Origin: Tubulanus polymorphus
Taxonomy: Eukaryota > Animalia > Nemertea
Assembly: GCF_964204645.1 (NCBI RefSeq)
Contig: NC_134025.1
Coordinates: 12,586,001 to 12,650,000 of the forward strand
Reading direction: 5' to 3'
DNA length: 64,000 nt
The position numbers and the translations under genes are program-made. Below the pieces are notes generated by a model that did no database searches, was not told the origin of the DNA, and saw only the letters and a program-made list of their open reading frames with translations. Positions 16,081 to 53,184 of this stretch are shown piece after piece; within the stretch, counting starts at the first letter, position 1; each line of letters opens with the position of its first letter.

Positions 16081-16389
16081 CTAAATGACAATTTTACAAT
16101 ATCTTGCGCGATGTTACATTTCCGGGTTTCCTTGTTTGACGTCATCGCAGTGATTCCGGGTTATCTGGAAGTGTTGCGGTATACTACGGTTAGGGAGTTC
16201 TTCTATTTTTCGCTTCTGACGCATGATTTAGGTTTGCTCCGTTCGTGCGGGACGCGTATACCAGACACTTACATTTGCAGTTTTATGAGAGTCTTTTATG
16301 AGAGACTACTCAGATTTTGGCCTTTTCATTATTCTTGTTTATGGCTGATCAGCTTCTTGTTGCGTTTGTCCTTGTATTCCTTGAAAACA

Positions 16390-31916: not shown

Positions 31917-34900
31917 CATTATGAGAATGCCGGTTTGCTAGCGTATCTATTTAACACCCGTATTGCTCGGGTTAGTTTTACTATCAACGGGTGGCGCTGT
32001 ATGTAAATTTCACATAAATCAACGACTTTCGGCTATTAGCGGTACTTAAGACCACTTGAAAACATCATAGTCAATTACGGTAGTAGTGAACATAAAAAGA
32101 TACAGTACAAATATACAGTACGGTGTACAGTTAAGGACATGATTCCATAGCACCCATACCAGAGACATTTTGTTCAGACAAGGACTATTAGTTAAACACT
32201 AATCTTCATTTTCAGCAATTAACGATCTGGTGAATTAATTAGTGATTCGGTCTTTCGGTGGTTCGAGATAAAATGCCCGCAAAATAAGAACCTAACGAAC
32301 CAGGGCTGACCACAAATTGCCCAACAGATAAATTTTCGAAACGACACAATCCAATCATGTTTGGTAACAAATGTGGCGTGGACCATGGTCTTTTAACTGA
32401 CCAATGCATGACCAGTACTGACCATATAGTAAATTATTTGTTTGCAAACAATTAAGTTGTTTGGTGTCAAATAACTAGATATGATGTGGGCATTAATCTA
32501 ACTGGTACTGACCAGTTACCAGTGCTAACCAGAACCCCCATAAGTAATTTATATGTTTAGCGAATCCTTCGTTAGAACTACTAGCTCTTAAATTTGTCGC
32601 TTGAAAAAGTCTTGTCCGATTTTTTGTTGTAGGTAGCGAGCTAACTTTGAAATTCCGCTAAAATGCATAAGAATTTTACGTTGGGTGAGTGTTTGATGTT
32701 ATAACAATATCAGACTGAAGTATGGATTCGGTTTCTACTTTTTAATTGAACATTTATATCACATATTGGGCATCATTTTTACCAGTATATATTGAATAAC
32801 CTATCTATATATCATCTTCAATTTTATAAAATCTGACTTTTGAGATGTCATTCAATCAATGCATTCACATGCGGTCGTCGCTTTCAATAGCCACCACGGA
32901 CTGGCTCCTTATTATTTCTTTGGTGATACCATTGGCGGACGATCCCACACGTTTCTTGCTCCAGCCCTAGAATGCTCAATATTCGTCATGAACCCCGATT
33001 TGAGTTTAAATTCAAAATACTCCTAAAACACACCTGTTAACTAGATTACTCTAAAACACCTTTATGTGCAAGAATCAGTGAAATTGGCGCTTTATCAGTT
33101 GTATTCATCTCGTACCCACGAATCTCGTATCGTATCCTATTAATGTGGAGACCCATCCTCGTAAAGAGAATGAATAGGCTCTGTTGCGTTCATATCATTT
33201 GATATGAGGCTACGTGTCATCTTAAATTGAAATCACGTTGTTTTTTTAAAGGGTGGGCGAGAATATATTCTTATGTTTTTGTTTCTCTGAATGTTGCTAT
33301 TTAAGAGTTCAATTATTTCAGTCTACCAAACAAAGGATTTTCCGTATGTTTCGTGACATGTTTTTCCATAACCCTAGGAGAGCATTTTAGGTATTTTTTT
33401 GCGGATGACCGAAAGCTGCTATCCCTTTCTAGTAATTTGATGATATCCGTCGAAATCTAAATTCTAAAAAGGAATCAGGCATATCTTCTTTATTGACTAA
33501 ATATGAACTCAACAACAAGTGACATTCCCTTCAAAGGCGCCGAAGTAAAATCATGTGTCGAGTGGAGATGATATTGTGTCAGAATTTCTTCAAAATCGGA
33601 GAAAATTGAATATTTTAAAAATAATCATTTTACATGTATGTTTAAATCCGTTATAACTGGAGTAATTTTCATGAAAAAATATCTATGGAATCAGCGAAAT
33701 GTAATTAAGAGGAACACTATGTTTAAAAAGTTATCAAAGACATTTGAAAAAAGTTTTCTGAATTCGTCAACTGTTAAACTAGTAACAACCAGATGTGTTC
33801 CCATTAAACCACCGACCGCGAGCCGAGTCGATGTGAGATGTGCCCTACACTGAAAATCTCAAGTGCTATACAACCGGTTTTTTAGGTGCCTCTGAATGTC
33901 GGCCGTTAAAAAAACTGAACAATTCCCATTTGGAAAGGGCCTACGTAGTTAGAGAAAATTCAAGATGTGTATATCGTGTGAGATACAGGCTCCATATTTC
34001 ATGTGCGTTTGGAATTTAACCTTGTTTTATAACGAAACACGCATGTATTTATGCTATTTTAGATTTAAAAAGAGCGCACGAAAGTGTTTCATGAGACCCG
34101 CAAACAACGTCAAGTTATTTATGCATTTTTGATTTATATGAATAAATTTCGCTTCGAAATCTTAAAATTTCTCAGGTGGATTATTCAATAAATTCACAAC
34201 AGTCCATTATGGATTAGTTTGACGCCAATCGTTCTTTTAAAGATCTTTCTTTCTCGAAGAAAGATTTTCTTAAAAACTTTGATTATGGCGAATGTTTTAT
34301 GTGTCCGATAGTTAAACCTTCGGGTATTATACTAGAACACAAATTTTTAAAGATATTCATAACATACTGAAGGATATCACAGGTTATACCCGAACATATG
34401 CAGTTGGATAGATCTTTTTGTTTCGACTCGCATGCGACAGTAAAAACGGTACTTGATATAATAAGTGAACTTCATCATTGATATTTTCACTAATCTACTT
34501 GAATTCCAAAAAAGAACTGACAATGAAAAAGGGTTACAGCTGTGACTGATATCGCTCCAAATTTCAATTCCTATGAACACTTTTAATATAAAGACAACTA
34601 TTAACGAAACAGTTTTTAGAGGCGAAGAATCCGCGTTACCATCGAATTTTCAAAACTTGAAGGAATGGTTAATGCCTCGGTGACCACTGGTCTAGTACGC
34701 GGTTTTCTGAAATGAAAGTGGCCAAGTCTAAATAACAACTATTGTATCACATGATTTCAAATATTAGGAACCCGATGCGTTTAATGATTTGATTAATTGG
34801 TATCGCGCAGATTGGTTGAAAGACGGGTGTTAGTCACCTTGTGATTTAATTGTTTTTCATGCATCGATTAATTAATCTTATTATAACTTATTTGTAGGCG

Positions 34901-35534
34901 CATCCCGCAAACATTTTCTATTCGTTGAGTTTTCAAACGCAGTACTGTTCAGATGATTCGAGTCAAGTAGTAAAAAAGTTTATGTATTAGCATTACTATG
35001 CAGTGAAAATAACGCACTGCGGCAAGTGAGGTGCTGTGATCCAGATGTGTAACCCATTTATGGGTAATAAATTTCCATCATGTCAACGCCATTCAAAAAC
35101 AGTAGCAAAACTTTCTGCTGGTTTCTAGAAATAGCAATACGACGACAAGCACTTTCGAATTCGACCACGATATTTGAGAAGTTTCGCTGGTGGTCAGTGA
35201 TGGTCAATTTATGAATTTTAATGGCGAATCCTTTCTAGTTTCACACCAAAAGCGGTACCGGTATATCGTTCTTTCAAGAAGTTTCAATTGGTCAGTGGTG
35301 GTCAGTGATGGTCAATTTATGAATTTTCAATGGCGAATCCTTTCTAGTTTGACACCATAACGCGGTATATCGTTTTCATATTGGAGAAGTTTGAATTGGT
35401 CATTGGTGGTCAGTGATGGTCAGTGATGAATTTGCAATGATGATTCCTTAGAGGTTTGAAAACAAACATTACATGATAAATTTCCGAAATTCGAAGTCAA
35501 GTGGTCAGACTCGGGGATATCTCAATTGGTCAGT

Positions 35535-35947
35535 AGTAATTAGAAGATGGCGTTTTCAGATCAGCGGTCGAGCGGTCGAGACACCACTCATCACCACAAG
35601 TAATTTTTTTCCCTAATAAATGGGGGAGAATGAACACCAGCCAGAAAACAATAATGTTAATAAAAATCAATATTATTGCCAATATTGTAAAAAATACATT
35701 GATAAATCCCAAAAATCACGACATGAAAAAACTGCAAATCATATAAAAAATGTAATAGATTTTGAAACTCCAGAAAATTCCAATGAAAGAAAAGAACGAT
35801 TAGAAAATATGAATGTGGATGAAATAAAATGTGAAGTTTGTAATGAATTTATAGAAAAAAGGAATTATAATAGACATCTCGAATCACAAAAACACCATCA
35901 AAATTTAAGTAATAATGTTTTAGGAAAAGAATATTTCGATGATAAAC
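35535..35947 (+). repeat. Left terminal inverted repeat (413 bp)
   Basis: Reverse complement of 52323-52735; at least 3 mismatches seen. Confidence 0.93.
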
Positions 35948-38900
35948 CTCAAAAAGTAAAAAAACCAACTTCAAAAACTAAATCCATTTCAAATAAACCT
36001 TACATGGAAAATGTTAGAAATTATATTGATTCACTAGAAATAAAAGATACAATTGAAATTTTAGAAACATTACATAGTAAAATTGGTCCTGCGGCTATTA
36101 TATTTAGATTCTTTAAAGGTACAACAATAGAAGATTATAGTAAATTTAATGAAATAATAGAAAAAATACTAGATTTGATAACAGATGTTGAATATCCAAA
36201 AATTAGTATCTCTGGGAAAGTAAGTTTTATAAAGTCAGAAGAAAAAATGAATTATAATATTCAAACACTCTCTGAAGAAATAATTTCAAAAACACAAATA
36301 AAAGAGAAGTTAGAAAAAATATTAAATGAATTTAAACGTCATATTGAAGAAAGATATTTTGAGGGTTCTGGCTTAACATTGAATGAAATTATATATTTAG
36401 ATTTAAATGTTTACAATACAAAAAGAAATAAAACATCAAAAAGTAAAACAATGTTTAAAAATGATTCAAACTTTACAACAGAAAAGGATATTAAAGCATC
36501 ATCTTATATTAAATTATCATTAACGACAAAAGCAGTAATAAATATTCAAAATGAAGATAATAAATGTTTTCTATGGTCAATTATTAGTTGCTTACATCCA
36601 ACACAGGAAAATGTTTGTAGGATAACAGATTATCGGAAATATGAAACATTATATAAAATTGATCAATATCCAGTAACTATAAAAATGATACCCAAAATAG
36701 AAAAAATTAATAAGTTAAAAATAAATGTATTCGAATTAATGCAATTACCAAAGACAAAAGGTGAAAATATTAAAGATTATACATTGGAAGCTTTATATTT
36801 AACAGAATATTATGATGATGAAAATGCTATAGATTTGTTATATTACAAAAAAGATGAAAATGAACATTATATGTGGTTAAAACAAATTGATTTATTCTTT
36901 AGAACAGAAAGTGATTTTAACAGCCATAAAATTTATCTATGTAGAAAATGTTTATCTAAATTTAGAACTGAGAATGCGTTACTAAAACATAAAGAATTAT
37001 GTGATAATAAAGATTTTTGTAAATTAATAATGCCAACAGAAAAAGATTATAAATAGAAATTTACTAATCATAAATTTAAAAATATTGTTCCATTTGTAAT
37101 TTATGGGGATTTTGAATCGTTGAATAAAGAATTAACTGATCAAGATAGAAAAGAAATATATAACAAAAAGCAATTATTAAAATCAATGGATAAAGGAAAT
37201 GAATTAAATGAAGACACAATACAAGACCCACCAATTATAAATACAATTAAAAAAGTTCATCAAAGAGCTGCTGCTTATGGAATTTACATCAAATCAAATT
37301 ATCCCGAATTATATGAAAGTCAATATATTTCTTTTAGAGGTGAAAATGTAGTTAATGATTTTTGTGATAAAATGATTGAATTAGAAAGTGATTTTGCAAA
37401 ATTATTAAACAAAAATAAAAGAATAGTTATGACAAAAGAAGATGAAATTGATTTTAATTATGCAACTCATTGTTGTTATTGTGAAAAACGTTTTTATTCA
37501 TTTGATAAAAAAGTTAGAGATCATGATCATTTGAATTCAAAATATCGTGGAGCTGCTCATGAAGATTGCAATTTACAAGCTAAAAAAGTTAATTTCGTAC
37601 CAATATTATTTCATAATTTATCAGGCTATGATACCCATCTATTTATAAAACAATTATCAAAGAAATTGGGCGCAATTAATCAGGAAATAGAAGAATATAA
37701 CGCTATGAATGAAGCAAATGTAAGAAAATATGATTTTAAACTATTAGCTAAAACATCTGAAAATTATATTTCATTTCAATTTGGTTGCATTAGATTTTTA
37801 GATTCTTATAGATTTCTAGCAAGTTCATTAGATAATTTATCAAAAAGTTTAGTTGATAATGATTTTGTTATAACTCGATATTATTATCCAAATGAACAAG
37901 ATTTTAAATTATTGAGATATAAAGGCGCAATTCCTTATTCATTTTATAAAACACACAATGATTTTAATGTAACAGAATTATTAAAAGATCAATTTTATGA
38001 TCAATTAAAAGAGGAGTATGTGAAAGATGAAGTGTTTAATAGAACATTAAATATTTGGAACCATTTTAAGATGAAAAATCATGGCGAATTAGTTGATTTA
38101 TATTTAAAATCAGACGTTATGATATTGGCTGACATATTTGAAAAATTTAGAGAAGTTAATTTGAATCATTTTAATGTTGATCCTTGTTATTGTTATTCAA
38201 GTCCTGGTTTAACCTGGCAATGTGGTTTAAAATATACAAATGTAGAATTAGATTTATTAAAAGAACCAGATATGGTTTTATTATTTGAAAAATCAATTAG
38301 AGGTGGAATTAGTGGTGTTATGGGAGATAGGTATTTTAAAGCAAATGATGAATACAAATTATTATATATTGACGCCAATAATTTATATGGTTGGGCAATG
38401 ATGCAACCTCAACCATATAAAAATTTTATATTAACAGAAGTTGAAAATGGTGATAAAACTGATTGGGAAAGCGCAATTGCGAGTTTAAAAGATGAAGCAC
38501 CAATTGGTTATTTCTTCGTAGTTGATTTAGAATATCCTGAAAATATAAAGTTTAAAACTAGAAACTTACCTTATTGCCCAGAACATTTAACTGTAGATGA
38601 TAGTTATTTAAGTGAATACCAGAAGATAATAAAACCGAAAGATCATGTTTTTACAGAAAAATTAATACTTACTCAAAATAATAAATACAATTATATTGTT
38701 CATTATAGAATGTTAAAATTTTATCTAAAACAAGGAATGAAATTAAAGAAAGTACATAGATATATTGAATTTAATCAATCGAAGTGGTTAGAAAAATATA
38801 TAGATTTCAATACTCAACAGAGAACCATATCAAAAACAGATTTTGAAAAAGATTTCTTCAAATTAATGAACAATAGTTTTTATGGTAAAACATGTGAAAA

Positions 38901-40396
38901 TATTAGAAATAGAAATGATATTGAATTAGTAAATAATTCTGAAAGATTAAGACATTTACAATCAAGTCCTAGACATTTAGGAAATAAAAGATTTGAAGAT
39001 TATTTAACAGCAGTTAAATTAAAAAGAACATCAATGAAATTTAATAAACCTATATTTATAGGTTCGACTGTTTTAGAAGTATCAAAATTATCAATGTATG
39101 ATTTTTATTATAATGTTTTACAACCACTTTTTGGGGAAAAGCATATTGAAATATTATATTTTGATTCTGTAACAGCTGACACCCCAATATTATTAAAATG
39201 TAATGATAAAATATTGATAAGAAGAATTTCAGAAATAATTCCAAAACAAAATGAATGTTATATTTCATATGGAGAAAAAGAATTAATACAAATAAATGGT
39301 TTAATGGATGTTTGGACAAGAAATGGATGGAAAAAATTAAAGAATATTATTAGACATAAAACAAATAAGAAAATCTATAGAGTTAGAACTAAATTAGGAT
39401 TTGTAGATGTTACAGAAGATCATAGTTTAATTAAACGAAATGGCGATGAAATAAAACCAACTGATATAAAAATTGGAGATGAATTATTGCATAAAAGATT
39501 TTTCCAAAGAATGAATCATATGTCATTTGATGAAATTATTGATAATATTTATAATATAGAACCCGAAACATTAGAAGAAAAAGAATATTTTATCAAAGGA
39601 TTTTTCATGGGTGATGGTTCAGCAGGTGTGTATAATTATGTTAATCGCACTCAATATTGCTGGTATTTATGCAATCAAGACTTAAAATTATTAGAAAGAA
39701 TTAAGAAATTCTGTGAAGAAGTTTATTCACATAAAACATTCAAAATCATAGATGTTATGAAATCATCGCAATGTTATAGAATACTTGTAAATAATCCTAA
39801 AGATTTTAAGCCATGTAGAAAATGAGTTAACAGAAGAAGTTAAGGATTTATTTGAAATACATAACCCATCAGATTATGTTTATGATTTATCAACTGAAGA
39901 TGGTACATTTAACTGTGGATTTCCATTAATAGCGGTCAATACTGACGCCTACATACTAAAAATCAAGACAAATGACATAACAAAAGACTTAAAAACATTA
40001 AAACATTATTTTGAATTTAGCTATTATCCTAAAGATCATGAACTATTTAGCAATGATAATAAAAAGATTCCTGGTAAATTTAAAGATGAATTAGGGGGTG
40101 ATGAAATGATTGAATTTGTTGGGATAAGAAGTAAAATGTATAGTTACAGAACAAAAGATCATGAAGCTAAAAAGTTAAAAGGAATAACAAAACATGTGGT
40201 TGATAAACATATAGAATTTCAAGATTATATAAAGTGTTTATATAAATCAATTGTTATGAAACACAAAATGAATTGTTTAAGATCAGAAGATCATGAGATG
40301 TACATTAATGAAGTTGAAAAAACTAGTTTAAATCCATTTGATGATAAAAGGCATATTTTAGATGATGGTATAAAAACATTACCTTATGGCCATTAA
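35620..40396 (+). pseudogene. polB: Protein-primed family B DNA polymerase (pPolB) with N-terminal Zn fingers, an endonuclease VII-like insert and an intein; disrupted
   Basis: ORFs 35620-37056 and 37120-39825 are in the same frame, separated by one TAG (37054). Motifs: ExoI YGDFES, EndoVII-like VRDHDH..YRGAAHEDCN, ExoII FHNLSGYD, ExoIII YLKSDV, motif A YIDANNLYG, motif B KLMNNSFYGK, motif C YFD|TD, then GKFKDE and RSKMY. There is a frameshift at ~39810. Confidence 0.93.
39166..39940 (+). mobile_element. Intein (pol-c insertion site) with a partially deleted LAGLIDADG homing endonuclease
   Basis: N-junction ILYFD|SVTADTPILL (block A), VDVTEDHSLI (block B, TxxH), KGFFMGDGSA (LAGLIDADG block C), YVYDLSTEDGTF (block F) and LIAVN|TDAY (terminal Asn, +1 Thr). 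Removing it restores YFDTD. Confidence 0.92.
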
Positions 40397-41708
40397 AACA
40401 TAAAATCAATATCATCATACTCGAAATCACTATTGGCTTCTTCATTTTCATTTAATTGTTCAGGTTCTTCTTCCATTCCATTTTTCTCATTTAAATAAAG
40501 TTCTATCTTGTTCCACATTTCATCTCGCTCTCTTTGTTTCTTTTTGTTTGTTAATTCGTCAAATGGAATTATAATATCTAGGTTTAAATAATTTACAATC
40601 TTATTTAAAAAGAATTCATAAATTATTGAATCTGTTATTCTATTTTCCAAATGATACATTAATATTTGTTTGAATATTTTTTTTATATTTTCCATATCTT
40701 CTTCTGTTAATTTAGGTTTTTCATAATAATCGTTAAATAATAAATATAAATACATTTTCTTTTGTTTTGTGTTAAATGTTGGCGGAATAATTGTTTTTAT
40801 AATATCTTTTTTGTTATTTCACCATTTTCATTTTCTATTATTTTCATTTTTTCAAGCCATTGCATATATTCTGGAGTATGATCTTCCATAGAAAATATTT
40901 TAAAAATTTCATCTAGATAATTCAATTTTGGATCTATGAGAAAATCTCTAGTTTTTTCTTCACCCAATAAATTCTTTTGCCATCCACATTCATTACAAAA
41001 TAACACAGTACCTTCTTGTCTTAAGGTCGCATAACTACATTGTGGACATTTTCGTTTATAATTTACTGGTAATAGATCTTCATTAAGCTCTTGGTATTTT
41101 CTTAAGTTTTCTTTATGTTTTATTGTTCTATTATGTAGATTTGAATTACTTGTTGTAATAATCAATTTACAATATTTACAATAATATGTTTTTCTTGTTA
41201 ATTCATTATATTGTTTTTCTAACTTTTCAACTGTTTCTTCATTATCTGGTAACGTTTTCTCATATTTTATTTTTTCTAATAAATTATTTTTTCTTTCATT
41301 AAATTCAGTTTCAAATTTATTATAAATTTTATATATATGTACTTTACGAAATTGATGATTCTCCCAATCTTCTATATTTTCAGGGCTATATTTTATTCGA
41401 CAAGGCTCGCAGAAATGATCTTTTATATTATCCTTATCATAGAAAAAGAAAGGTCTTTTCCAAATAACTTCAGGTTCAACTTCAGCAGAATTACTATTAC
41501 TTTCATTACTATCAACATTGGCCGTTGCGCCATTAATTCTACACTTATCTGAATGTTTTTTAACATAATTTCTTGAGAATGATTTATTACATTTTGGACA
41601 GTTTATTTTAGGGGGTTTATAATTTTCATCATGTTTTTTCATATGTCGAGCCATATTACTTTTTCTTAGAAGTTCATCACAAATTTCACATGCTATCTTC
41701 TCATCCAT
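40393..41708 (-). pseudogene. Multi-zinc-finger protein (probably one ORF, frameshifted at a homopolymer near 40810)
   Basis: ORF 40797-41708 has several CxxC...H/C fingers. An open alternative frame (KDIIKTIIPPTFNTKQKKM) links it to ORF 40393-40755. Confidence 0.65.
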
Positions 41709-41776
41709 TTATTTAGGAAAAATTTTATTAAAATTAATTTTTAGTGATGAGCGGTAATTTTTTTATGTTATAAATA

Positions 41777-42533
41777 ATGGTAGAATTAAAAGAATACAGA
41801 ATATTTGTTGATTCTAGAAAACTTAAAAATTATAAATCACATAATTTACTAGTACAATTAGATAGAGAATTTAAGAATTGTGTTGATTTAAAATTAGTAA
41901 ATATAAGTTTATGTAACTCATTTTACAATATATCGGATAAAACTCTTGAACATAGTCTTTTTAATTTTTAATAAAAATAATCATAAATGGTTTCATCTAT
42001 TTTTAAAACCAGGGTTATATAATTTAGAAACATTAGCCCAAGAAATTAATCGGAAAGCACGATTAAAACTTGAAAGTGAAGATAAATTTTCAATTAGATT
42101 TATAAAAAGTGATAGTTCTGATAAAATTAAAATAAAGTTAGATGATGAAAGCAAACATGCATTTATGGTAAGGAAACCTTTAGCTAAACTGTTAGGAATT
42201 AAACCACAAATTGTTACAGGAAACGTAGACGGTAATTCAAATATAATACCTTTTACACATTTTTATATTTATTGCAATTTAATCGATCCTACAAAAACAT
42301 TTGAAGCAACTAAAGATACAACATGTAATTCTAGTATATTAAATATTTTACCAATGAAGAACGTTAAACAATTTGGAACTCAAATAAATTATAATTTAAC
42401 TGAATGTGATTTCAAACCTTGTATTCCACATTTCAATAATTTTAAATTAGAAATAAGAAATCATAATGGATATTTAATTGATTTGAATAACTTTCCTGTA
42501 ATTTATGAATTAGTCATAAGATGTAAAGAGTAA
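41777..42533 (+). pseudogene. Minor capsid protein (penton, single jelly roll), frameshifted near 41950
   Basis: Motifs IFVDSR..., NSFYNI, PGLYNLETL...IN, LAKLLG, FYIYCNLI and LEIRNHNGYLIDLN follow the Polinton/NCLDV penton pattern as remembered. Confidence 0.7.
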
Positions 42534-42549
42534 TTTTTTCATTATATAA

Positions 42550-43050
42550 ATGAATATAACTGTTGGACCGAGTATATGTTTTGGGTTTGATTTTAAACGT
42601 GAGAAAGAAATGAAATTTAACATTAATGATGTAATTACACATATCAAAAATATTGCATTTTCTAATGAAACAACATTTGAGTATGAAACAACAATAGATA
42701 AAGAAACTTTAAATGTAGAAAAGATTACTAATTTAATTAGAGAATCTTTAAGATTTTATGAATTAGATGAAGATTTTATCATAGATGATATCAAAAACAT
42801 ATTATCCAAAATATATGATAATCATAAAAGTAGTAAAATCAAGTGGATAATAACTGGATTATATAATGGCGCCTTACTATCAGTTGCAACTGATGGTTAT
42901 TCAATGGTATTAAAAAAAGTATTCAAAATGGGAAGTGTTAATGTTGATAGATTTGATATAAATGATATTTTAAAATTAACATTAGCAGTTACTTTATCTA
43001 ATTTAACTATTGATTATTTGGAAAAACAAAAATATATTCCTCCCATATAA
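42550..43050 (+). CDS. Hypothetical Maverick protein (166 aa, hydrophobic C-terminal helices)
   Basis: Intact ORF with a T-tract/TAAATG start. Confidence 0.7.
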   Translation: MNITVGPSICFGFDFKREKEMKFNINDVITHIKNIAFSNETTFEYETTIDKETLNVEKITNLIRESLRFYELDEDFIIDDIKNILSKIYDNHKSSKIKWIITGLYNGALLSVATDGYSMVLKKVFKMGSVNVDRFDINDILKLTLAVTLSNLTIDYLEKQKYIPPI

Positions 43051-43055
43051 ATACA

Positions 43056-43077
43056 TAATTTTTTTGTTAAATAAATG
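43056..43077 (+). promoter_or_regulatory. Representative conserved promoter/initiator motif AAT(6-7)-N(5-7)-TAAATG found at most Maverick ORF starts
   Basis: The same architecture occurs at starts 35620, 41708(-), 42550, 43075, 43516, 43967, 45372, 46696, 50411, 51794(-) and 52650(-). TAAATG with little or no T-tract occurs at 47966, 49095/49675 and 50949. Confidence 0.8.
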
Positions 43078-43497
43078 GCTTCTGCAATTATAACTATTAT
43101 AGGATCGGCAATTGTTAACGCTTTGGCATTTACTGGTGGTGGATATTTATTTAAACATATTGATAAAAATAGTTCATTAGGAGAACAAAGAAGACATAAC
43201 TTAGCATTAGAGAAATATAATAAAGCTGCAGAAGAATATAGAGAAAAACGACAAAACTATATGGATTATATTAACAAGGAATTATATGATCAGAAGATTT
43301 CACATAGAGATTTTCAATCAGTTGATGATGCAATGAGTTTATATAACGCGGTAACCAATAAAGAAAAATTACATCTATACAAACCTAAATTATCAGATTA
43401 TTATACCCCAAGTAAAGAACAACAGAAATATGAAATAATATGGATTTTAGGTGGAACTGTTATTGTTATATTTGTTGCTTATAAGTTTACTAATTAG
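43075..43497 (+). CDS. Hypothetical membrane-associated virion protein (140 aa)
   Basis: N-terminal amphipathic/hydrophobic segment, EQRRHN plus coiled coil, C-terminal TM; TAAATG start. Confidence 0.7.
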   Translation: MASAIITIIGSAIVNALAFTGGGYLFKHIDKNSSLGEQRRHNLALEKYNKAAEEYREKRQNYMDYINKELYDQKISHRDFQSVDDAMSLYNAVTNKEKLHLYKPKLSDYYTPSKEQQKYEIIWILGGTVIVIFVAYKFTN

Positions 43498-43515
43498 TAA
43501 TTTTTTTCTAAATAA

Positions 43516-43977
43516 ATGGAAGATAAAGTTGATAGTATTGATATTATTCCTCATGATATAAATAAAACTAAATTAAAAACATATTTAGAAAAACAAATAT
43601 TAGAATTTGAAAGTGACTTAAAGATAAAAAAGAAAAAATATTTAAAAAGTAAAATTATATATTATTTGATTATAAGTGGTTCGGTTACAATTAGTTCTGT
43701 AATAACATTTCTAGTAATATTCAGTCCATTAACACCTTTAGCTATATCAATTGGTGTGTTAGGATTAAGTTCAAGTGTTTTAACCGGAATAAGTTCAAAA
43801 TTGAATATAAAAAGTAATAAAGAAAAAATAAAATCTAATATAAAAGAAATTAATAAATTAAAGAATACACTAGATTATATAATAAGTTTAAATGGCCATA
43901 TAACAGTTGAAGAACAAGATAAATTATTAAAAGAATTAATAAATTATAAATTTTTTAATTATATAAATGGTAGATAG
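43516..43977 (+). CDS. Hypothetical two-TM coiled-coil protein (153 aa)
   Basis: Intact ORF with a central hydrophobic hairpin; TAAATG start. Confidence 0.7.
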   Translation: MEDKVDSIDIIPHDINKTKLKTYLEKQILEFESDLKIKKKKYLKSKIIYYLIISGSVTISSVITFLVIFSPLTPLAISIGVLGLSSSVLTGISSKLNIKSNKEKIKSNIKEINKLKNTLDYIISLNGHITVEEQDKLLKELINYKFFNYINGR

Positions 43978-45355
43978 TTTTCCAAAAGCTTTCCAATATA
44001 ATAAATCAATTAAATATAATATTCCAGCAACAGATTTTAATAAAGATATTACATATAGAAATAAAGTTTTAGATTCATTAACTAATTTAGAAATTTATGT
44101 TACTGAAACTAATAATTTTAATGCAAAGATGGAAAATATATTTCATGTATATTTAATTAATTTTAAAAAATTGAAAGATGAAAAACAATGGTTATTGAAA
44201 TCTAATATGAAGTATTGGCAGAACCAATTAAATTTTGCTGTTTATTGTGCAACAACAGGATGTGGAATTAGTTGGAATGATCATTTGAATAATTCTAAAT
44301 ATAAATTAATTCAAAGTTTATTTAGATTTCATACATACTTTCAAATCAGAATAATATTAAATGAATTAGAGTGCGCTTTACCAGGATCTAGATATTTTAA
44401 AGAATTAGATAATAATATTAATTTATCTAAGTTTTATAAGATTTGCAATGAATTTAATATAGATATAAATAATTCTGATTTTAGAACAAAAATTGGAACA
44501 ATAAGATCACTTCCTTGCCCTAAAAAGGTTGCAGAATATTGTGCACTTCCCATACCATCTAATAGTTTTTATAATATCTATAATAATAAATTAGGTTATG
44601 GTAAAATAGAAACTAAGGATTTAGAAACATTAAATTTCAATAAATTACCGAAATTTTATGATCATTTTAAACAAGAAAACAATAATGGTTGGGTTTATTT
44701 TATTTTAGAAAATAGTGAAGGTTTTACTAAATCAGGTATAGAAAGAATAAATCAATCTATTAGAACTTATTTGATTTGTATTCTAGGATCACAAGTTGAA
44801 ACAAGATCACCGATAATTGGAAATTTGAATACATCATTCGACACACAAAAACAATTTAAAGTATTATTTGAAGATTCCATACATAATGATAAAAATAGAT
44901 CGATTCCAGAAAACATTATTAGATATCAAAATTATTTAGATAAATCACATATTAGATTAAATTATTGTATAGGCCCTAATCTATTAATTATTTCTAATGA
45001 TTTAGTATTAAAGATGGGAAATATAATTGGTTATAATAATCTAATTAAAACTGCGACAATAAATAATTCATTTGGGTTAAATGATATAAATAAAAAGATT
45101 ATCACTGCTCCAAAATTAATGGAAGGTGAAAAAAATAAAAAACATATTCAATCAACAGAAACTAAAACTAAGAATATTAAATTGGATAATGATTCCAAAA
45201 TAAAAGATTACAATACTACAGAAAATATTAAAACTGATAATATTCAACATGATATAATTAAAACTGATAATGACAATAAATCCCATGAAAATACTAAATT
45301 AGCTATAACTTGTATAGGAATTGTAATCGGAGGAATATTATATTTTAAATTTTAA
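43967..45355 (+). CDS. Hypothetical Maverick protein (462 aa, C-terminal TM)
   Basis: Long intact ORF containing WQNQLNFAVYCATTGCGIS and FRFHTYFQIR; function not recognised. Confidence 0.75.
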   Translation: MVDSFPKAFQYNKSIKYNIPATDFNKDITYRNKVLDSLTNLEIYVTETNNFNAKMENIFHVYLINFKKLKDEKQWLLKSNMKYWQNQLNFAVYCATTGCGISWNDHLNNSKYKLIQSLFRFHTYFQIRIILNELECALPGSRYFKELDNNINLSKFYKICNEFNIDINNSDFRTKIGTIRSLPCPKKVAEYCALPIPSNSFYNIYNNKLGYGKIETKDLETLNFNKLPKFYDHFKQENNNGWVYFILENSEGFTKSGIERINQSIRTYLICILGSQVETRSPIIGNLNTSFDTQKQFKVLFEDSIHNDKNRSIPENIIRYQNYLDKSHIRLNYCIGPNLLIISNDLVLKMGNIIGYNNLIKTATINNSFGLNDINKKIITAPKLMEGEKNKKHIQSTETKTKNIKLDNDSKIKDYNTTENIKTDNIQHDIIKTDNDNKSHENTKLAITCIGIVIGGILYFKF

Positions 45356-45371
45356 TTTTTTTATTATATAA

Positions 45372-46671
45372 ATGGATGTAGAAGGTGGAGAAGGTTTTCC
45401 ATTGGATCCTTTAGATGAACCTGGTATAAGTGATGAACAACCACCTGATTTTGATGAAACACGTTTTAATGACGGTAATGACCCAGAATATAATAATAAT
45501 TTAAATATGCCTGATTATATTAAAAATGCTGAATCACAATTAGATCCTGAAAATTTAGACCCATATTTAGTAAAAGAAGATTTAGATAATAAAAACAAAA
45601 TAGCTAAATTAGAAGATTTAATTAAAAAATCTAAACTTAACATAAATGATGAAGACGTTGGACCTTTAGCAGATCAATTAAGATTTTTAGATAATGGTAA
45701 ATGTTATTATCATTTGAAAGATGATTGTTATATTGCTATCACTCATAAAGATAATAAAAATAAAATATTAACAAAATCAACTTTGAGTGATTTACATCCA
45801 GATAGAATTAGAAGAATAAGTAATATTAATGATATAGAAGAATATTTAACACAAACAGAAATGAATAAAAATAGAGAAGTATTTAAACAAAGAATTAATG
45901 AATTATTTGAAATAATCAAAAAGAAATCAGAAACAGAAACAACTTCTGAACAGAATATAACTTCCAAAAATAGTAAACTTAAATCAAATAAAGTTCCGAT
46001 TGAAAAACTATTACCGAATAGATTACTTGATGCAACAGATCAAGAATTAGAAGATTTAGATATATTTTCTGATAAAGCAATTAGAGAGATTATTAGTATA
46101 AGAAATGCATCTGATAAAATTGCGCATGATAAAAGTATAAGAGATTTTAAAATTAGAACTTTAGAAAAAGTTAACTGATAAAAATAAAGAAATAGAACAA
46201 TTAAAATTAGATAGAGATAATAAAGTTATTGAAGAAATTGAATTTAAAAAAAGAAATACATATTTAGAAAAAGAAAAAGATGATTTAGAATATAACATAG
46301 AATTACAAAAAGAAGAAATTAAATTATTATTAAAATCATATGATTATAATAATAATAGATTAAAAGTTATTTTTAAAGATTTGTTGATAAAACCAGATTC
46401 TAAAATATCATTGAAAGATAGAATAAAGTTATTGTTTAAATTAGAAGGAATAACAATTCTTTCAATTCTAACAGCTGTAACTATGTTATTTACAACAATT
46501 GGTTTAGCTATATCAAATGCTTTAAAATCTACTCCTACTCCCACTCCCAATAAACCAGATAAACCCCCAGGTAATAATTCTATACAAGATAAAGTTAAGG
46601 ATGGTTTTTTTATTTTTTATTACAGTTGTAAGTGCTATTATTTTTGGGTAAGTAAACATGATCAAAAATAA
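45372..46671 (+). pseudogene. Acidic/coiled-coil protein with a C-terminal hydrophobic segment; disrupted
   Basis: ORF 45372-46178 continues after a frameshift into the frame ending in ORF 46381-46671 (LKDRIKLLFKLEGITILSILTA). Confidence 0.6.
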
Positions 46672-46695
46672 AGAATTAATTTTTTTGTTAAATAA

Positions 46696-47935
46696 ATGAG
46701 TGGGAGTTATATAAGTCCTTCTAAGATTTCTAGAATATCTAATAAGCAGAAAGATCACATCGTATAATTACTCATAACCCTTCAAATATTAATCCCGATG
46801 AAACTTTATATGTTAGAATTCCTAGATTAACACAAAATACTTTTTATGTTCCAAATAGTATTTATTTATCAGCCGATATAAAAGTAACTGGCCATGATAA
46901 CAATTATGTTGTTGATAATGTTGGAAGATATTTGATTAAGAAATTAACTATAAAGATTGGTCCGGAAACAGTTTTCTCATTAGATGATTATAATTTATTT
47001 ATGCATTATAAAGATTTATGGTTAACTAAAGAAAATAGAAATAATATGATATTTCAAGGCATCCAATCGGAAAACCATAATAAATTAAGATCAGGAGCTA
47101 ATGACGCAATAGTAACTCGTGCCGCAGATAATTTGATTAAAAAGATTTATGGAAGCAAATATAAAATTCCATTAGATTTTGAATTGATAAATAATAATGC
47201 ACCTTTATATAAATACGCAATTCAAGAAGATATTATATTTGAGATAACATTTGCTCCTGTAAATGAAATTGTATTATCTAGCGTTGTTAAAGATATGAGT
47301 TATAAATTATCGAATATATGTTTAGAATATGATACAGTAACTGATGAAAATATTTCAAGTATAATTCAAACTCAATACAATCAAGGATTTTCATTATTAT
47401 ATGATTATATTGATAAATTTAAAACCGTAACTATTAATGCAAATGATGAAATAATTAATGAGAATATTAACTTCCCAAGAAGATCTATTAAAGGTATATT
47501 AATATTTTTTACCATTGCAACATATTCTAATGGCGCAATAAGGTAGATAATTATTATAATCCTGAAATAACAAAAGTAGAAATAACTATCGAAGGAATAG
47601 CAAATAAAATATTTTGCCAAGGAATGAGAATGATAGATCAGTGGCCAGAAATTAGAAAACATTTTATGAATGAAAAAGTAAAATCATTTGAAAATTGTAA
47701 TATTAATCAAATTGATTATTATACCGGCAATAAATATGCATTATGGTTAGATTTTAGAACAACAGAGGATAATTCATTACATGGTTCTGGGAAAAAACTA
47801 CAGAACACTAAAGATGGAATACAATTATTCATGAAAAAGAAAAAAGGAAGCTTAAATTTTAAAATGCATATTTATATTATATCTGACGCGCAATTAAATA
47901 TTGTAAATTCACAATTAGATAGTATTCAATATTAG
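46696..47935 (+). pseudogene. Major capsid protein (double jelly roll), frameshifted near 46750 and 47540
   Basis: Reconstructed to about 410 aa: THNPSNINPDETLYVRIPRL...NVGRYLIKKLTIKI...YKDLW...KIPLDF...ICLEYD...PRRSIKGIL...YYNPEITKVEITIEG...LWLDFRT..DNSLHGSG...SDAQLNI. It is beta-rich and of MCP size, and starts at a TAAATG (46696). Confidence 0.75.
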
Positions 47936-47965
47936 AAATATAAAGTTAAAATTAAGGATATATAA

Positions 47966-49094
47966 ATGGGTGGTAAAAAAACTCCTAATACTAAAGAACA
48001 ATATTTAAGAAATTTATATTACAACCCTGAGAGTTCGGTTGCTTATTCTTCTACTAAAAATATGTGGCGTAAAGTAAAACAAGATAAATTAGATAAGATA
48101 ATCCCACAAAATTTAGTTAAATATAAAGATATAAATGAATTTATGTTAGAACAACCAACATATACAACACATAAAAAAATTGTTAGAAAATATAAAACTC
48201 GTAAAACTATGGTAAGTTATGTAGATCAACAGTGGCAAGGAGATTTAATTGATATGAAAAATGTTAAGAAAGATAATGATGATTATTGGTGGTTATTGAA
48301 TATGATTGATATTTTTAGTCGTTATGTATGGAGCTTCCCACTTTATAGAAAAGATGCTGTACAAACATCAAATGTTTTAAGAAAATTTCTTTCGGATGAT
48401 AAACTAAAACCAGAAAGAAATACAATTTGATGATGGAAAAGAGTTTGATAATTCACTTGTTCATGAACTCTTAGACAATCATAATATTGAATATTTTTCA
48501 ACAAAATCGGATAAAAAAGCAGCAGTTGTTGAACGATTTAATAGAACATTAAGAACAAGAATGTGGAAATATTTTACAGCAAATAATACTTTTAAATGGA
48601 TTGATGTTTTGCCAAAATTGATAGAAGGATATAATAATTCTTATCATTCTTCTATTGGAATGAAACCTATTGATGCTAGAAAACCTGAAAATGCTGAAAT
48701 TGTTTGGAATAATTTATATGGAGCATTTCTTGTAGATGATTTTGGTGAACCTAAATTTAAAGTTGGTCAAAATGTGAGAATTTCTAAGTATAAAAAGATA
48801 TTTGATAAAGGATACGATCGAAATTTTACTAGAGAAATATATAAAATAAAAAAGGTAATAACAACAAAACCATATGTCTATAAATTAGAAGATTTAGATG
48901 GTGAAGAAGTTGATGGCTACTTTTACGAAGAAGAATTAAGTTTAACTACTGAAAATCTAGAACAAGAATATAAAATTGAAAAAGTATTAAAAACAAAAAC
49001 TATTAAAGGAAAAAAATATTCTTTAGTAAAATGGGTTGGATGGCCAGATAAATTCAATGAATGGATATTATCAAGTAAAATTAAAAATATATAA
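47966..49094 (+). pseudogene. Retroviral-like (rve) integrase with C-terminal chromodomain, frameshifted near 48418
   Basis: DDE triad WQGDLIDM / QFDDGKEF / VVERFNRT, then YNNSYHSSIGMKP. Chromodomain YKIEKVLK...SLVKWVGWPDKFNEWI. Confidence 0.92.
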
Positions 49095-49920
49095 ATGAAT
49101 AAGGAATTATTCATATTTGAGCCTCATAATATGTTAATTTCTGGTGTAACAAATTGTGGAAAAACTTATTTTAGATTAAATTTATTAGAAATTGTTTATG
49201 AAAACTATTTTGATAATATAGTATTATTTTGTCCAACATATGAATTTAATCAAACTTATGATAGAAATATTACTAGGAATAATAAATTTATTATATTAGA
49301 TCCTAAAACAGTAAAAGAAAATTTAGATAATTGTATTAAAAGTTGGTCAAAATGTGAGAATTTCTAAGTATAAAAAGATATTTGATAAAGGATACGATCG
49401 AAATTTTACTAGAGAAATATATAAAATAAAAAAGGTAATAACAACAAAACCATATGTCTATAAATTAGAAGATTTAGATGGTGAAGAAGTTGATGGCTAC
49501 TTTTACGAAGAAGAATTAAGTTTAACTACTGAAAATCTAGAACAAGAATATAAAATTGAAAAAGTATTAAAAACAAAAACTATTAAAGGAAAAAAATATT
49601 CTTTAGTAAAATGGGTTGGATGGCCAGATAAATTCAATGAATGGATATTATCAAGTAAAATTAAAAATATATAAATGAATAAGGAATTATTCATATTTGA
49701 GCCTCATAATATGTTAATTTCTGGTGTAACAAATTGTGGAAAAACTTATTTTATATTAAATTTATTAGAAACTGTTTATGAAAACTATTTTGATAATATA
49801 GTATTATTTTGTCCAACATATGAATTTAATCAAACTTATGATAGAAATATTACTAGGAATAATAAATTTATTATATTAGATCCTAAAACAGTAAAAGAAA
49901 ATTTAGATAATTGTATTAAA
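48761..49920 (+). repeat. 580-bp tandem duplication (integrase 3' end plus ATPase 5' end)
   Basis: 48761-49340 matches 49341-49920 with at least 2 substitutions. It creates partial ORFs 49095-49367 and 49354-49674. Confidence 0.93.
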
Positions 49921-50245
49921 ATAGCAATTGATATTTGTAAAGGATCAAATACATTATTCATTATAGATGATTGTGCTAATCTACATGATTCAAAAGTTAG
50001 AGAAAGTGAATTATGCTATTTAGCTTTCTCTGGGAGACATTTTGGGATAACAACTTGGGTTTTAAATCAAAAATATAATTCAATTGTTAAAGACTTTAGA
50101 GAAAACATTAGATTTCTAGTTTTATTCTACAATAAAGATAGAAAATCTGTGAATATATAATGAATATATGGATAAGTTGAAAAATATTAAAAGATCAAAA
50201 TTATTATTTAGATTACAACACCCATTTAAATATGAATTTATTTAA
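49675..50245 (+). pseudogene. A32/FtsK-HerA-like DNA packaging ATPase, disrupted near 50155
   Basis: Walker A GVTNCGKT, Walker B LFIIDD, arginine finger SGRH and the NQKY motif. A C-terminal tail lies in another frame and ends at 50245. Confidence 0.88.
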
Positions 50246-50410
50246 ATTCAATTAGTTTGTTAATCTAGTTGAATTCTAGTTATTAGTATTTGTAACAAAA
50301 ATCAAATAGATTTAACAATATTTCAACTAGCTTGTTAATCTAGTTAAATTCTAGTTACATTCTAGTTAAATTCTAGTTGCAACATCACAACTAATTTTTT
50401 TGTTATATAA

Positions 50411-51016
50411 ATGGTAGGTGAAAAGAAAATAAAATCTAAAAATGGTGATGTTCCAATTGAAAAAACTTTAGATGATTTAGGAATAACAGAAAACAAATTA
50501 ATTCCAGATGATGGTGCTTTAAATAATGTTACAACAAATAATAATTATGAATATTATCTTTATTGCAAACATCAATTAGAAATATTAATAGCATCTGGAA
50601 AATGTAAAAAATTTGTCGATAAAAATTTAACTTATAATGAATTAGATGCAATGAAATCAAATGAAATTATTAGATTATTTAAGATTTATGAAGCCGCGAG
50701 AACAGCTAAAATTAATGACGCGATATCAGAAAATGTAGTAAAAGGTTATAGTAAATTATGTAATTATATACTACCAATTGAAAATGAAAATAGATTATAT
50801 TCCGATTTAAAAAATGACTATTTAGTTATGACTGAATTAAATAAATGGATTGGATATTCATCATTTCAATTAGGTGGATTTATGACATTATTATCAACCG
50901 GGGTTATAACATTTTCAAATATTGAAAGTAAAAATATTTCTATAATAAATGAGCGAAGTGAAAGAAGCGAAGGAATTAACTGTGAAGAAAAAACCGAGAA
51001 CTCAGAAACAAATTGA
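50411..51016 (+). CDS. Hypothetical Maverick protein (201 aa)
   Basis: Intact ORF with a T-tract/TAAATG start. Confidence 0.7.
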   Translation: MVGEKKIKSKNGDVPIEKTLDDLGITENKLIPDDGALNNVTTNNNYEYYLYCKHQLEILIASGKCKKFVDKNLTYNELDAMKSNEIIRLFKIYEAARTAKINDAISENVVKGYSKLCNYILPIENENRLYSDLKNDYLVMTELNKWIGYSSFQLGGFMTLLSTGVITFSNIESKNISIINERSERSEGINCEEKTENSETN

Positions 51017-51359
51017 ATGGTCTCGGCAATTAGGAATTAAATCACAAGAATATAAAAAAGCTGTAAAAGAAAAAATGAGTAATAAAAATGTTAATAAAAA
51101 TGGTGAAAATATTGTTATTTCTACTCCTTCTGATAGTAGAATATTTGATAAATATTTATATTTTACAGTTGGATTTGTAATTGTATTCATTTTGATTGGG
51201 TGTGATTGGTATAAGAAATCAAATAAAATTCATGATGTTAGTAATTCTGAACCAACTGCTATCAAAAATGAAAGTACTTCTGAAATTCCAAAATTGATAA
51301 TAAAAAAATGGATTAATATTTTAGAAAAAAAGCAAAAAAAAATAATTTTTTTTAATTAA
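50949..51359 (+). CDS. Hypothetical basic protein with a TM segment (136 aa)
   Basis: KKKPRTQKQIEWSRQLG followed by YLYFTVGFVIVFILIG; TAAATG start. Confidence 0.62.
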   Translation: MSEVKEAKELTVKKKPRTQKQIEWSRQLGIKSQEYKKAVKEKMSNKNVNKNGENIVISTPSDSRIFDKYLYFTVGFVIVFILIGCDWYKKSNKIHDVSNSEPTAIKNESTSEIPKLIIKKWINILEKKQKKIIFFN

Positions 51360-51467
51360 TTGAATATCTCACTACTTTTGTCTATCTATGCGGAGCAATC
51401 AAATTGTCCAGATAAGTCATTTCGGATTCTAGATATTCATTATTTTTATTAATTTATTTTTTTTAAT

Positions 51468-51794
51468 TTAATCAACAATTTCTAAATCATGATGGCCGTC
51501 TTCATTTTTTCCATGATAGATTATTTTAGATCCTTCTAAATCTTTTAATTCCTCTGTACTCAATGAAACCCATTTATCAGGTAAAAATACTTTAAATTCT
51601 CGCGATGTACTAACATTACAGTAGCTTAAATTAGCTGATACTTTCTCTCCATATTTAGTTTTTATCTTTTTAATTTCAATATTTTATGTTCAATTTCTTT
51701 TGTAACATCAACTAACTTTTTTATTTCAAATTGTTTTTTTTGCTGGTTTTATTCTGTTATTTATTGTTGCTAAGAATGTTTTTCTATCTCCCAT
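51468..51794 (-). pseudogene. Small (~108 aa) beta-rich protein missed by the ORF track; frameshifted
   Basis: TAAATG start at 51794 (MGDRKTFLATINNRIK...). The C-terminal frame reads IKKIKTKYGEKVSANL...FKVFLPDKW...KIIYHGKNEDGHHDLEIVD*. Confidence 0.6.
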
Positions 51795-52104
51795 TTATAA
51801 GGAAAACAAATTACTTGTGGTTAAGAGTGGGGATTACTTCCCCCTGTATATAACAAGCGCGCTATTAACCGTTCTCACCCAAGCCTCACAGCATCTATTT
51901 ATCCGGGTACAGTTGACACGCAATCACTGTACTACTACAGTAATAGCACACGCGTTAACCGTTCTCAGTAGAGACTCACTGTATCGATCTATCCACGCGC
52001 AGTTGTTGTTACGCGCACTCACTGTATATGTGTGTCACAGAGCAATCGTCCGTTCTCACTAGAGCCTAGCTGTGATGAGTGGTGTCTCGTACCCGGTTGA
52101 ATTA

Positions 52105-52650
52105 TTATTTTGAGTTATGATATTTTGAATTAAGATGGTGTGATTTATTGCTTCGAGTATAATATTTTCAACAATCACATAACACTTTTTCATTAGGTTC
52201 ATATTTAGGTGTAACAATTTCATTATCTAAGTTACATTGAACTGCAACATCTTTATATGATTTTTCATTATCTAATTCACATTGAATACCAATATTTGAT
52301 GAATTTTCATTATAGATAATTTGTTTATCATCGAAATAATCTTTTCCTAAAACATTATTACTTAAATTTTGATGGTGTTTTTGTGATTCGAGATGTCTAT
52401 TATAATTCCTTTTTGTTATAAATTCATTACAAACTTCACATTTTATTTCATCCACATTCATATTTTCTAATCGTTCTTTTCTTTCATTGGAATTTTCTGG
52501 AGTTTCAAAATCTATTACATTTTTTATATGATTTGCAGTTTTTTCATGTCGTGATTTTTGGGATTTATCAATGTATTTTTTACAATATTGGCAATAATAT
52601 TGATTTTTATTAACATTATTGTTTTCTGGCTGGTGTTCATTCTCCCCCAT
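52105..52650 (-). pseudogene. Zinc-finger protein sharing its first ~109 aa with pPolB via the TIR; premature TGA at 52168-52170
   Basis: Reading through the stop completes a third finger: CDC*KYYTRSNKSHHLNSKYH. Confidence 0.7.
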
Positions 52651-52735
52651 TTATTAGGGAAAAAAATTACTTGTGGTGATGAGTGGTGTCTCGACCGCTC
52701 GACCGCTGATCTGAAAACGCCATCTTCTAATTACT
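52323..52735 (-). repeat. Right terminal inverted repeat (413 bp)
   Basis: Reverse complement of 35535-35947. Confidence 0.93.
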
Positions 52736-53184
52736 GTCAGTTACTGACCATCATGGTGTCACCATTGTGGTCTATAGCTCAAATGAAACATGTGGAACCG
52801 ACGAAGGGGCCCAAAAGCGTTAAGTCATTTCCTGGAGTGAAGTGATCCAAAAATGCCCTAACTGGAAAAGGCAGTCTCTCAATTGGATGAAACCAAATCG
52901 GACAGGACAATTAAAATTTGGGAAGGCCACAGGCAGTGGTCTTTCTACGAAGCCCACGCGGTGAGCGTATTATTATGAAATCTTTTTTTAAACCACCATG
53001 TACCACGAAGTAATAAGCATCGTTGTAAGCACTTGAAACAGCCATTAACCACTTGAAACTGTCAGATCAAACATCACACCGCATCCCCGCAAAGAGGGGT
53101 GGTTCAGCAAACCGGAGTTTTCATTAGCCTCTCTAGACTACCCCGCCAGTACGGGTAGCCGAGCAAACCGGAAAACTCATAATG

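Follow-up and report, generated by a model that had tools for sequence, protein, structure and literature searches.

Poxvirus-type start signals in a decayed Maverick provirus of the nemertean Tubulanus polymorphus

Introduction

The virophages mavirus and Sputnik use the late promoter of their helper virus (10.1101/2022.07.28.501842), and polinton-like viruses (PLVs) found within entomopoxvirus occlusion bodies provide a precedent (PMC11296320). Virophage-derived immunity by animal Mavericks has been proposed (PMC8097293), and the virophage-like idea also appears in PMC11296320; how animal Mavericks are transcribed, and whether there are virophages among them, is a question raised in PMC8097293 on which there is little sequence-level evidence. 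Here we describe a Maverick/Polinton of about 17.2 kb in a 64,000-nucleotide stretch of the genome of Tubulanus polymorphus (contig NC_134025.1, positions 12,586,001 to 12,650,000), referred to below as the window. Nearly every gene of the element starts with a signal that resembles a poxvirus late promoter. We put the chance at about one in two that intact members of this lineage are satellites, their genes being read by the RNA polymerase of a large DNA virus that infects the same cell and has late transcription of the poxvirus type; judged from sequence, dependence on a helper is plausible but unproven.

That animal Mavericks may be virophage-like is thus already in print; the promoter and intein evidence presented here was not found in the literature searched. 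The searches, which went by title, start of abstract and term counts, with supplements and subscription journals outside their scope, gave no report of a Maverick promoter motif or of an intein in a family-B DNA polymerase of the protein-primed type (pPolB). In the main text of PMC11296320 the terms 'promoter', 'intein', 'VLTF3' and 'TAAAT' occur 0 times, neither 'promoter' nor 'intein' appears in the main text of 10.64898/2026.06.19.733378, and the available text of PMC8502044, 10.64898/2026.10.13.758929, 10.1101/2024.03.23.586382, PMC12220804 and PMC5294986 reports neither the motif nor such an intein.

The start signal

Thirteen of the 14 distinct gene starts that were curated by hand in the window read TAAATG, compared with 44 of the 686 ATGs across the element, and seven of the 14 coincide exactly with the start of a homolog in one related locus, L022 (related loci and proteins are given here as L and P numbers). 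Replication, integration and capsid genes carry the motif alike. An earlier reading of the window made from its letters (the sequence-only reading) had placed pox-like promoters on all genes; this holds for the 13 starts and fails for the fourteenth, which is TAAATAATG. The promoter argument is now stronger than in that reading: the signal is bipartite with fixed spacing, lineage-wide, absent (bar one start) from the sister clade, and opposite to the Kozak context.

Related loci were taken from a capsid-based scan of metagenome contigs (57 loci) and from genome contigs (one locus); the capsid tree has 45 capsids, 13 loci with short matches having been left out. On this tree the TAAATG trait is clustered. 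In the clade of the window element (15 loci), TAA directly precedes ATG at 52 of 61 starts, compared with 1 of 93 in the 16-locus sister clade of the same capsid family (1 of 44 in its AT-rich part) and 0 of 23 at four other loci. Because the motif is lineage-wide in the window clade and nearly absent from the sister clade, it is no artefact of AT richness. A second node of the capsid tree shows TAA-ATG at 16 of 21 starts, without the same upstream core. Position -3 is a T in 53 of the 61 window-clade starts, the reverse of the Kozak context, and a purine in 77 of the 93 sister-clade starts.

Upstream, an A/T core spans -18 to -12 and ends in T, and is followed at fixed spacing by WA-TAAATG; the core is present at 47/61 window-clade and 10/93 sister-clade starts. 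When 68 starts are profiled by position against 124 TAAATGs that are not starts, T reaches 0.88 at -12, A reaches 0.81 and 0.72 at -18 and -17, and G or C is almost absent between -18 and -12; T5 runs occur at 32/68 starts and 13/124 non-starts. In the vaccinia late promoter, TAAAT and a following G overlap the start codon and a T is conserved ten bases upstream; the intermediate promoter has an A/T-rich stretch 15-19 bases upstream (PMC11980589). Both vaccinia and the yeast pGKL elements make 5' poly(A) leaders by slippage on TAAAT (PMC6211774). The window motif is a close match to the vaccinia late and intermediate promoters.

Further start patterns were seen among the relatives. At the AT-rich sister-clade loci L050, L052 and L061 the starts read T(A)3-6-ATG, which may be an initiator of a related TAAA type and not simply a Kozak context. 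A different Polinton (L020:1-9034; GC content 0.38, distant pPolB, long N-terminal extension of the integrase) has TAAATG at 7/7 starts; with the second capsid subclade, it suggests that the signal may have more than one origin, or have been retained repeatedly. A subset of starts (window 41708(-), L022:565, L022:11054, L023:2461 and L026:2287) has TTTTAATAAAA farther upstream and a more A-rich core, and perhaps forms a second, intermediate-like promoter class.

Who transcribes the element

No RNA polymerase subunit was found among the window open reading frames (ORFs), or in scans of 30 and 25 ORFs from relatives (some ORFs scanned twice), where an Rpb1 match at E=0.086 was disregarded. Lack of an own RNA polymerase is common to all Mavericks, and hence is not diagnostic of a virophage lifestyle. 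The sequence-only reading had seen no transcription machinery at all, which is right for the polymerase and wrong for a VLTF3-like late transcription factor gene at 40393-41708(-). A fragment of this gene matches PF04947 (E=2.4e-5, 24.6 bits against a cut-off of 25), and all 30 of 30 Atlas matches of its product are VLTF3 clusters (score 0.92, 198 of 256 features, a low recognition value); by its zinc ribbon and the PF04947 match, the predicted protein belongs to the VLTF3 (poxvirus A2) family. None of the related loci retrieved spans a VLTF3 domain. Vaccinia A2 is a late transcription factor (PMC11980589), and VLTF3 is known from coral polintoviruses (PMC11131425), from mriyaviruses of 35-45 kb, where it is a core gene (PMC11253617), and from ariadnaviruses, nucleus-dependent nucleocytoviricots that retain it without an RNA polymerase (10.64898/2026.08.29.747986). 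The gene cuts both ways: it suits a helper and, because viruses that depend on the nucleus and lack a polymerase keep VLTF3, it also suits host Pol II, which tells against the satellite reading.

If intact members are satellites, the TAAATG motif would be their promoter, with transcription beginning at the AAA and slippage making a 5' poly(A) leader, and the helper's late machinery would be joined or redirected by the VLTF3-like protein. The element's own pPolB would replicate it, its own capsid and ATPase would package it, and the rve integrase would return it to the host genome. One promoter class covers all genes, the polymerase and VLTF3-like genes included, so no early gene class is evident (compare mavirus and Sputnik). 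The one-line signature that divides the family into two regimes, TAAATG plus the fixed upstream core, makes the question testable: it predicts transcripts with 5' poly(A) leaders from the AAA, co-occurring reads of a large-DNA-virus RNA polymerase, and reporter activity in poxvirus-infected cells. A further proposal is that, in a widespread animal lineage of Polinton-like viruses hard-wired for poxvirus-type late transcription, endogenous copies remain silent until the host group is infected by a pox-like virus still to be described, and then serve as a heritable virophage defence. We consider this unlikely. If it were true, the promoter would point to a group of helper viruses yet to be discovered, and one capsid family would divide into helper-dependent and host-transcribed branches.

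Coding DNA offers indirect and mixed evidence on the site of transcription. AATAAA shows no avoidance in the window (51 against 47 expected), and the observed and expected numbers are 76 and 78 in AT-rich relatives without TAAATG and 310 and 300 in giant-virus controls; this test does not discriminate, and neither does splice-motif avoidance. TTTTTVT is the poxvirus early terminator. In the close relatives it is depleted, with 9 occurrences for 30.6 expected (25 for 34.3 in the reversed control) and a binomial p=0.006 for homologous genes that are not independent. TTTTTNT past stop codons shows no difference (13/76 and 4/32). The depletion speaks for the satellite reading but carries little weight.

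Several results weigh against satellites of a pox-like virus. TTTTTVT is undepleted in the window itself (7 against 8.5) and in distant TAAATG elements (12 against 8.9), with 19 against 21.3 in an AT-rich control. A search for the helper among 118 motif-matching viral loci (55 of the 64 parts of the viral contigs) gave no TAAATG-dominated genome, with 62 of 666 starts TAAATG overall and 4 of 11 at the best locus. Invertebrate poxvirus-like genomes may simply be missing from this collection, in which no relative of the window capsid and only distant pPolBs were found. The 22 viral loci that have related inteins or a sister PolB (four of them fetched with a sister-clade PolB) have TAA-ATG at 15 of 173 starts. 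In the AT-rich sister group, 28 of 44 starts are AAA-ATG, several of them T(A)n-ATG, and this control may not be purely of Pol II type. Finally, the satellite reading does not account for the way in which a cytoplasmic polymerase would gain access to an integrated nuclear copy.

The strongest alternative is an autonomous nuclear virus or transposon, in which host Pol II reads TAAAT-type promoters with the element's own VLTF3-like factor or with other host factors; there would be no helper now, and the pox-like look would be inherited from a nucleocytoviricot-like ancestor or partner. We regard this as somewhat unlikely. The VLTF3-like gene, its persistence in the nucleus-dependent viruses, mriyaviruses and coral polintoviruses cited above, and the empty helper search are all in its favour, as is a family that is multi-copy and long-lived in the host and hence needs repeated access to the germline; yet the VLTF3-like gene and the polymerase share the TAAATG signal, so that no early class is evident from which the cascade could begin, and T at -3 is the opposite of the purine in the sister clade. 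Moreover, a Pol II TATA box needs a set spacing from the start, and a TATA-like sequence that runs into the ATG cannot act as one.

The intein and the remaining explanations

The intein in the pPolB gene sits at polymerase motif C and is nested among PolB inteins of large DNA viruses, as the sequence-only reading had supposed. It keeps the first LAGLIDADG block and lacks about 100 endonuclease codons relative to P0002. The best 120 of 505 matches in one search include three pPolBs, the others being PF00136-type family-B polymerases, including that of mimivirus (43%); a second search was taken to the best 150 of 1,931 matches, and the 261 carriers classed among the best matches of both are 229 PolB, 6 pPolB and 26 unclassified. 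Maverick inteins form one clade in every tree (SH-aLRT 100 with 122 rows, P0008 left out; 97 with 257 rows; 100/100 with 53 chosen rows), on a long stem of 0.47-0.57 changes per site in two IQ-TREE runs. Their sister group is the giant-virus PolB inteins P0010, P0012 and P0017 (support 90 in the 122-row and 96/91 in the 53-row tree), so that the ancestry is not confined to Mavericks. Over 805 residues, P0010, which lies on a GVMAG contig, shows 43% identity to mimivirus PolB; it appears mimivirus-like, and from this we infer the donor family. P0474, placed as the sister by FastTree, was rejected: its branch is long and compositionally odd, IQ-TREE put it elsewhere, and it could be assigned to no locus.

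Eleven of the 12 closest pPolBs lack the intein. Another Maverick family (136 members in all, 14 seen) has 6 members with and 6 without it, at 94-99.8% identity. Intein-less copies (P0140, P0328-P0341) are 94-98.5% identical to intein-bearing ones, yet diverge sharply just before motif C, and the residues preceding motif C come in three variants among 6 intein-less copies, as expected under co-conversion or escape from the homing endonuclease. P0003, a quite different type of pPolB that we take to be of the Beta/group-1 kind, carries the same intein clade; the intein therefore crossed between Maverick polymerase lineages. It has been speculated that endonuclease insertions in pPolBs derive from intein invasions (PMC11161782).

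The sequence-only reading had let intein and promoter converge on one helper, and proposed a search for a large-DNA-virus PolB with a sister intein and TAAATG promoters. Related inteins, the sister group among them, were found, in giant-virus loci where TAAATG is rare (15/173), and the two features point to no single helper. A helper that is the very mimivirus-like giant virus that gave the intein, and so shares both intein and promoter with the element, is quite improbable: the support for the sister group and the mimivirus-like look of P0010 speak for it, but the intein stem is long, loci L080-L083 show no enrichment (TAAATG at 2/9, 1/7, 2/17 and 2/16 starts), and the intein is missing from nearly all of the closest pPolBs and, with plus and minus alleles coexisting in another family, spreads between Mavericks. 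The intein says little on the present helper because loci of the donor type lack TAAATG, the closest pPolBs mostly lack the intein and it is polymorphic elsewhere. It is best read as captured once, long ago, from a mimivirus-like PolB and as moving among Mavericks today; it would be a relic of an earlier encounter rather than a pointer to the present helper. A giant-virus intein in Maverick pPolBs records contact of the two groups at the DNA level, and would mean that an animal genome houses an intein.

A GC content of 24% and the integrase stop that abuts the ATPase start might suggest that TAAATG is no promoter and results from AT richness, from the coupling of stops and starts or from the translation context. 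This is highly improbable, since the motif is missing from equally AT-rich relatives (L050, 1/7 at GC 0.26; L052, 0/4 at GC 0.28) and from giant-virus loci of GC 0.24, is kept at GC 0.40-0.44 (L028, 3/4; L029, 2/3), has its TAA as the stop of an upstream ORF in only 1 of 52 window-clade cases, and comes with a core at a fixed position. Three explanations of the motif were thus rejected: AT bias, the coupling of stops and starts, and a TATA box of Pol II.

Structure and state of the element

The boundaries given by the sequence-only reading are borne out: the element ends exactly at 35535 and 52735, with terminal inverted repeats (TIRs), termini AG...CT and a 6-bp target-site duplication (TSD), GTCAGT, on both sides (Table 1). 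It is a true insertion, because an inverted paralog of the flanking repeat, inside the same window, carries a single GTCAGT as an empty site, and contigs from three sequencing runs connect 35528 to 52736 with six shared letters. The contigs come from four DNA-like run sets of one study, one of them possibly the source of the window itself; in one possibly-RNA run only 4 short spurious pieces matched the element, which weighs neither way on expression. The family is multi-copy in the host, with 15,896 contigs of run X1 aligning to the element, 4,471 at 99% identity or more and 1,504 under 90%.

The element has 24.1% GC, compared with 37.0% in the remainder of the window. Its TIR identity suggests a young, recently inserted copy. 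This copy is dead, as had been claimed, and the description of an AT-rich genome with capsid, ATPase and integrase is correct. Compared with intact relatives it has at least 10 lesions, spread over most core genes. The pPolB gene has an in-frame stop (37054-37056) and an intein frameshift, and the capsid gene is frameshifted twice. The reading frame is also shifted in the integrase, ATPase, 45372 and 51794 genes and in those of the VLTF3-like protein and the putative minor capsid, and 580 bp are duplicated in tandem.

A Pfam search of 22 window ORFs matched pPolB, the intein, rve, chromo, the A32 ATPase, Capsid_N (weakly) and Pox_VLTF3. The rve fragment scores below the Pfam cut-off and is 69-77% identical to its L022 homolog. 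PDB and PHROG searches put no name on the unknown genes; the putative minor capsid gene had no match in Pfam or PHROG, and the 462-residue gene none in PDB. An adenovirus-type cysteine protease had no match among the 22 ORFs, and a remote protease may still lie among the unknown genes. TAAATG-start relatives have a deoxynucleoside kinase gene, typical of large DNA viruses (L022:10340-10981 (-), L029:2898-3380 (-)), which the window copy lacks at that position.

The major capsid protein (MCP) was identified through a natural homolog, P0240. The P0240 model (pLDDT 90, from 49 sequences) has a double-jelly-roll (DJR) fold. In a fold search with this model, iridovirus and PBCV-1 capsids come out on top (TM about 0.6), an adintovirus entry is 26th, and the mavirus and Sputnik MCPs rank 45th-46th (TM 0.52-0.59); nucleocytoviricot MCPs thus rank first, and the capsid tree holds relatives only. 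TIRs, TSD, AG...CT ends, pPolB and rve (both broken), DJR capsid and A32 ATPase make the element a Maverick-type provirus. As to Virophaviricetes, there is no virophage-type MCP by fold rank and no maturation protease among the window ORFs. From the fold search and the protease result, the element likely belongs to an animal group with PLV/Aquintovirus-related capsids; Aquintovirus-related elements of animals have been noted before (10.64898/2026.06.19.733378).

Table 1. Features of the Maverick-type provirus, in window coordinates
Feature	Position	Strand	Evidence or remark
Left TSD, 6 bp	35529..35534	.	Single copy at empty paralogous site; joint in contigs
Left TIR, 413 bp	35535..35947	+	Holds pPolB promoter and first ~109 codons
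pPolB, N-terminal zinc fingers	35620..40396	+	PF03175 E=8e-21; 64-74% to P0123
Intein, polymerase motif C (YFD/S ... N/TD), frameshift near 39.8 kb	39166..39940	+	
Zinc-finger and VLTF3-like (poxvirus A2-type) gene, frameshift near 40.8 kb	40393..41708	-	PF04947
Conserved gene, putative minor capsid, frameshifted, start TAAATAATG	41777..42533	+	Homolog L022:565
Unknown gene, TAAATG start	42550..43050	+	
Conserved 140-residue gene of this capsid family, TAAATG start	43075..43497	+	22 loci
Two-helix membrane protein gene, TAAATG start	43516..43977	+	78% to L022
Conserved 462-residue gene, TAAATG start	43967..45355	+	13 loci
Conserved coiled-coil/membrane gene, TAAATG start, frameshift near 46.17 kb	45372..46671	+	
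DJR major capsid gene, two frameshifts	46696..47935	+	79% to P0240
rve integrase with chromodomain, TAAATG start, frameshift near 48.4 kb	47966..49094	+	
580-bp tandem duplication (integrase end and ATPase start)	48755..49914	+	577/580 identical
A32-like packaging ATPase, TAAATG start, broken near 50.15 kb	49675..50245	+	PF04665 E=3.6e-13
Conserved 201-residue gene, TAAATG start	50411..51016	+	
136-residue gene, TAAATG start	50949..51359	+	
Small conserved gene, TAAATG start, frameshifted near start	51468..51794	-	57% to L022:125
Zinc-finger ORF beginning in right TIR (copy of pPolB start)	52168..52650	-	
Right TIR	52323..52735	-	410/413 to left arm
Right TSD, 6 bp	52736..52741	.	

The Maverick lies within one copy of a repeat of several kb (window 17231-23089; 31917-35534 plus 52736-53184), whose inverted paralog in the same window is 97-99% identical in pieces and shows the empty site. 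Also in the flanks are a Penelope-like element with a GIY-YIG match at 8454-9377 (-), a stretch at 16054-16983 (+) that had no Pfam match and that we take to be a probable LINE (long interspersed nuclear element) 3' remnant, and a simple tandem array of 8-9/17-nt units at 4709-5115. Both the Penelope-like remnant and the repeat-rich DNA of 37% GC point to an animal as the likely host.

Comparison with known systems

Mavericks/Polintons (Polintoviricetes, 'adintoviruses'; PMC8097293, PMC8502044) share with the window element the TIRs, TSD, pPolB, rve, DJR capsid and A32 ATPase, a length of about 17 kb, the lack of introns, and copies that are mostly decayed. The window element differs from them in that no cysteine protease was found, its MCP fold is closest to the nucleocytoviricot type, and it has a VLTF3-like gene, a motif-C intein and, at almost all of its genes, a start signal of poxvirus type. 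Polinton-3_NV, Polinton-N1A_NV and octocoral, hydrozoan and bivalve elements combine the Maverick replication and integration module with a non-mavpol capsid, as the window element likely does (PMC11296320, 10.64898/2026.06.19.733378).

Poxvirus intermediate and late promoters and the yeast pGKL initiator have the same TAAAT(G), upstream T and A/T-rich stretch (PMC11980589, PMC6211774), but poxviruses and pGKL elements encode their own RNA polymerase, none of which was found in the window element. The entomopoxvirus-associated PLVs (AHEV_PLV1/2, CBEV_PLV1, Ca_PLV1; PMC11296320) are likewise small animal-associated DJR viruses, and have been proposed as hyperparasites of poxviruses. Unlike the window element, they are ~12 kb long, have an adenovirus-type protease, lack the rve integrase and occur physically with their helper, whereas the link of the window element to poxviruses is its promoter sequence.

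In mavirus with CroV and Gezel-14T with PgV, the genes of a small integrating virus also carry the promoter of a large virus, and mavirus shares pPolB and rve. These systems differ in their protist hosts and in Imitervirales helpers with other motifs (AAAATTGA is PgV early); their helper dependence is experimentally shown, and the capsid of the window element is less like the mavirus and Sputnik MCPs than like those of PBCV-1 and iridoviruses. With the motif-C (Pol-c type) PolB inteins of giant viruses such as mimivirus, the window intein shares the insertion site (YxD/S...N/TD) and the LAGLIDADG block, and it is 43% identical to the N-terminal part of the mimivirus intein; unlike them, it resides in the protein-primed PolB of an integrating element and belongs to a clade that Maverick inteins form on their own.

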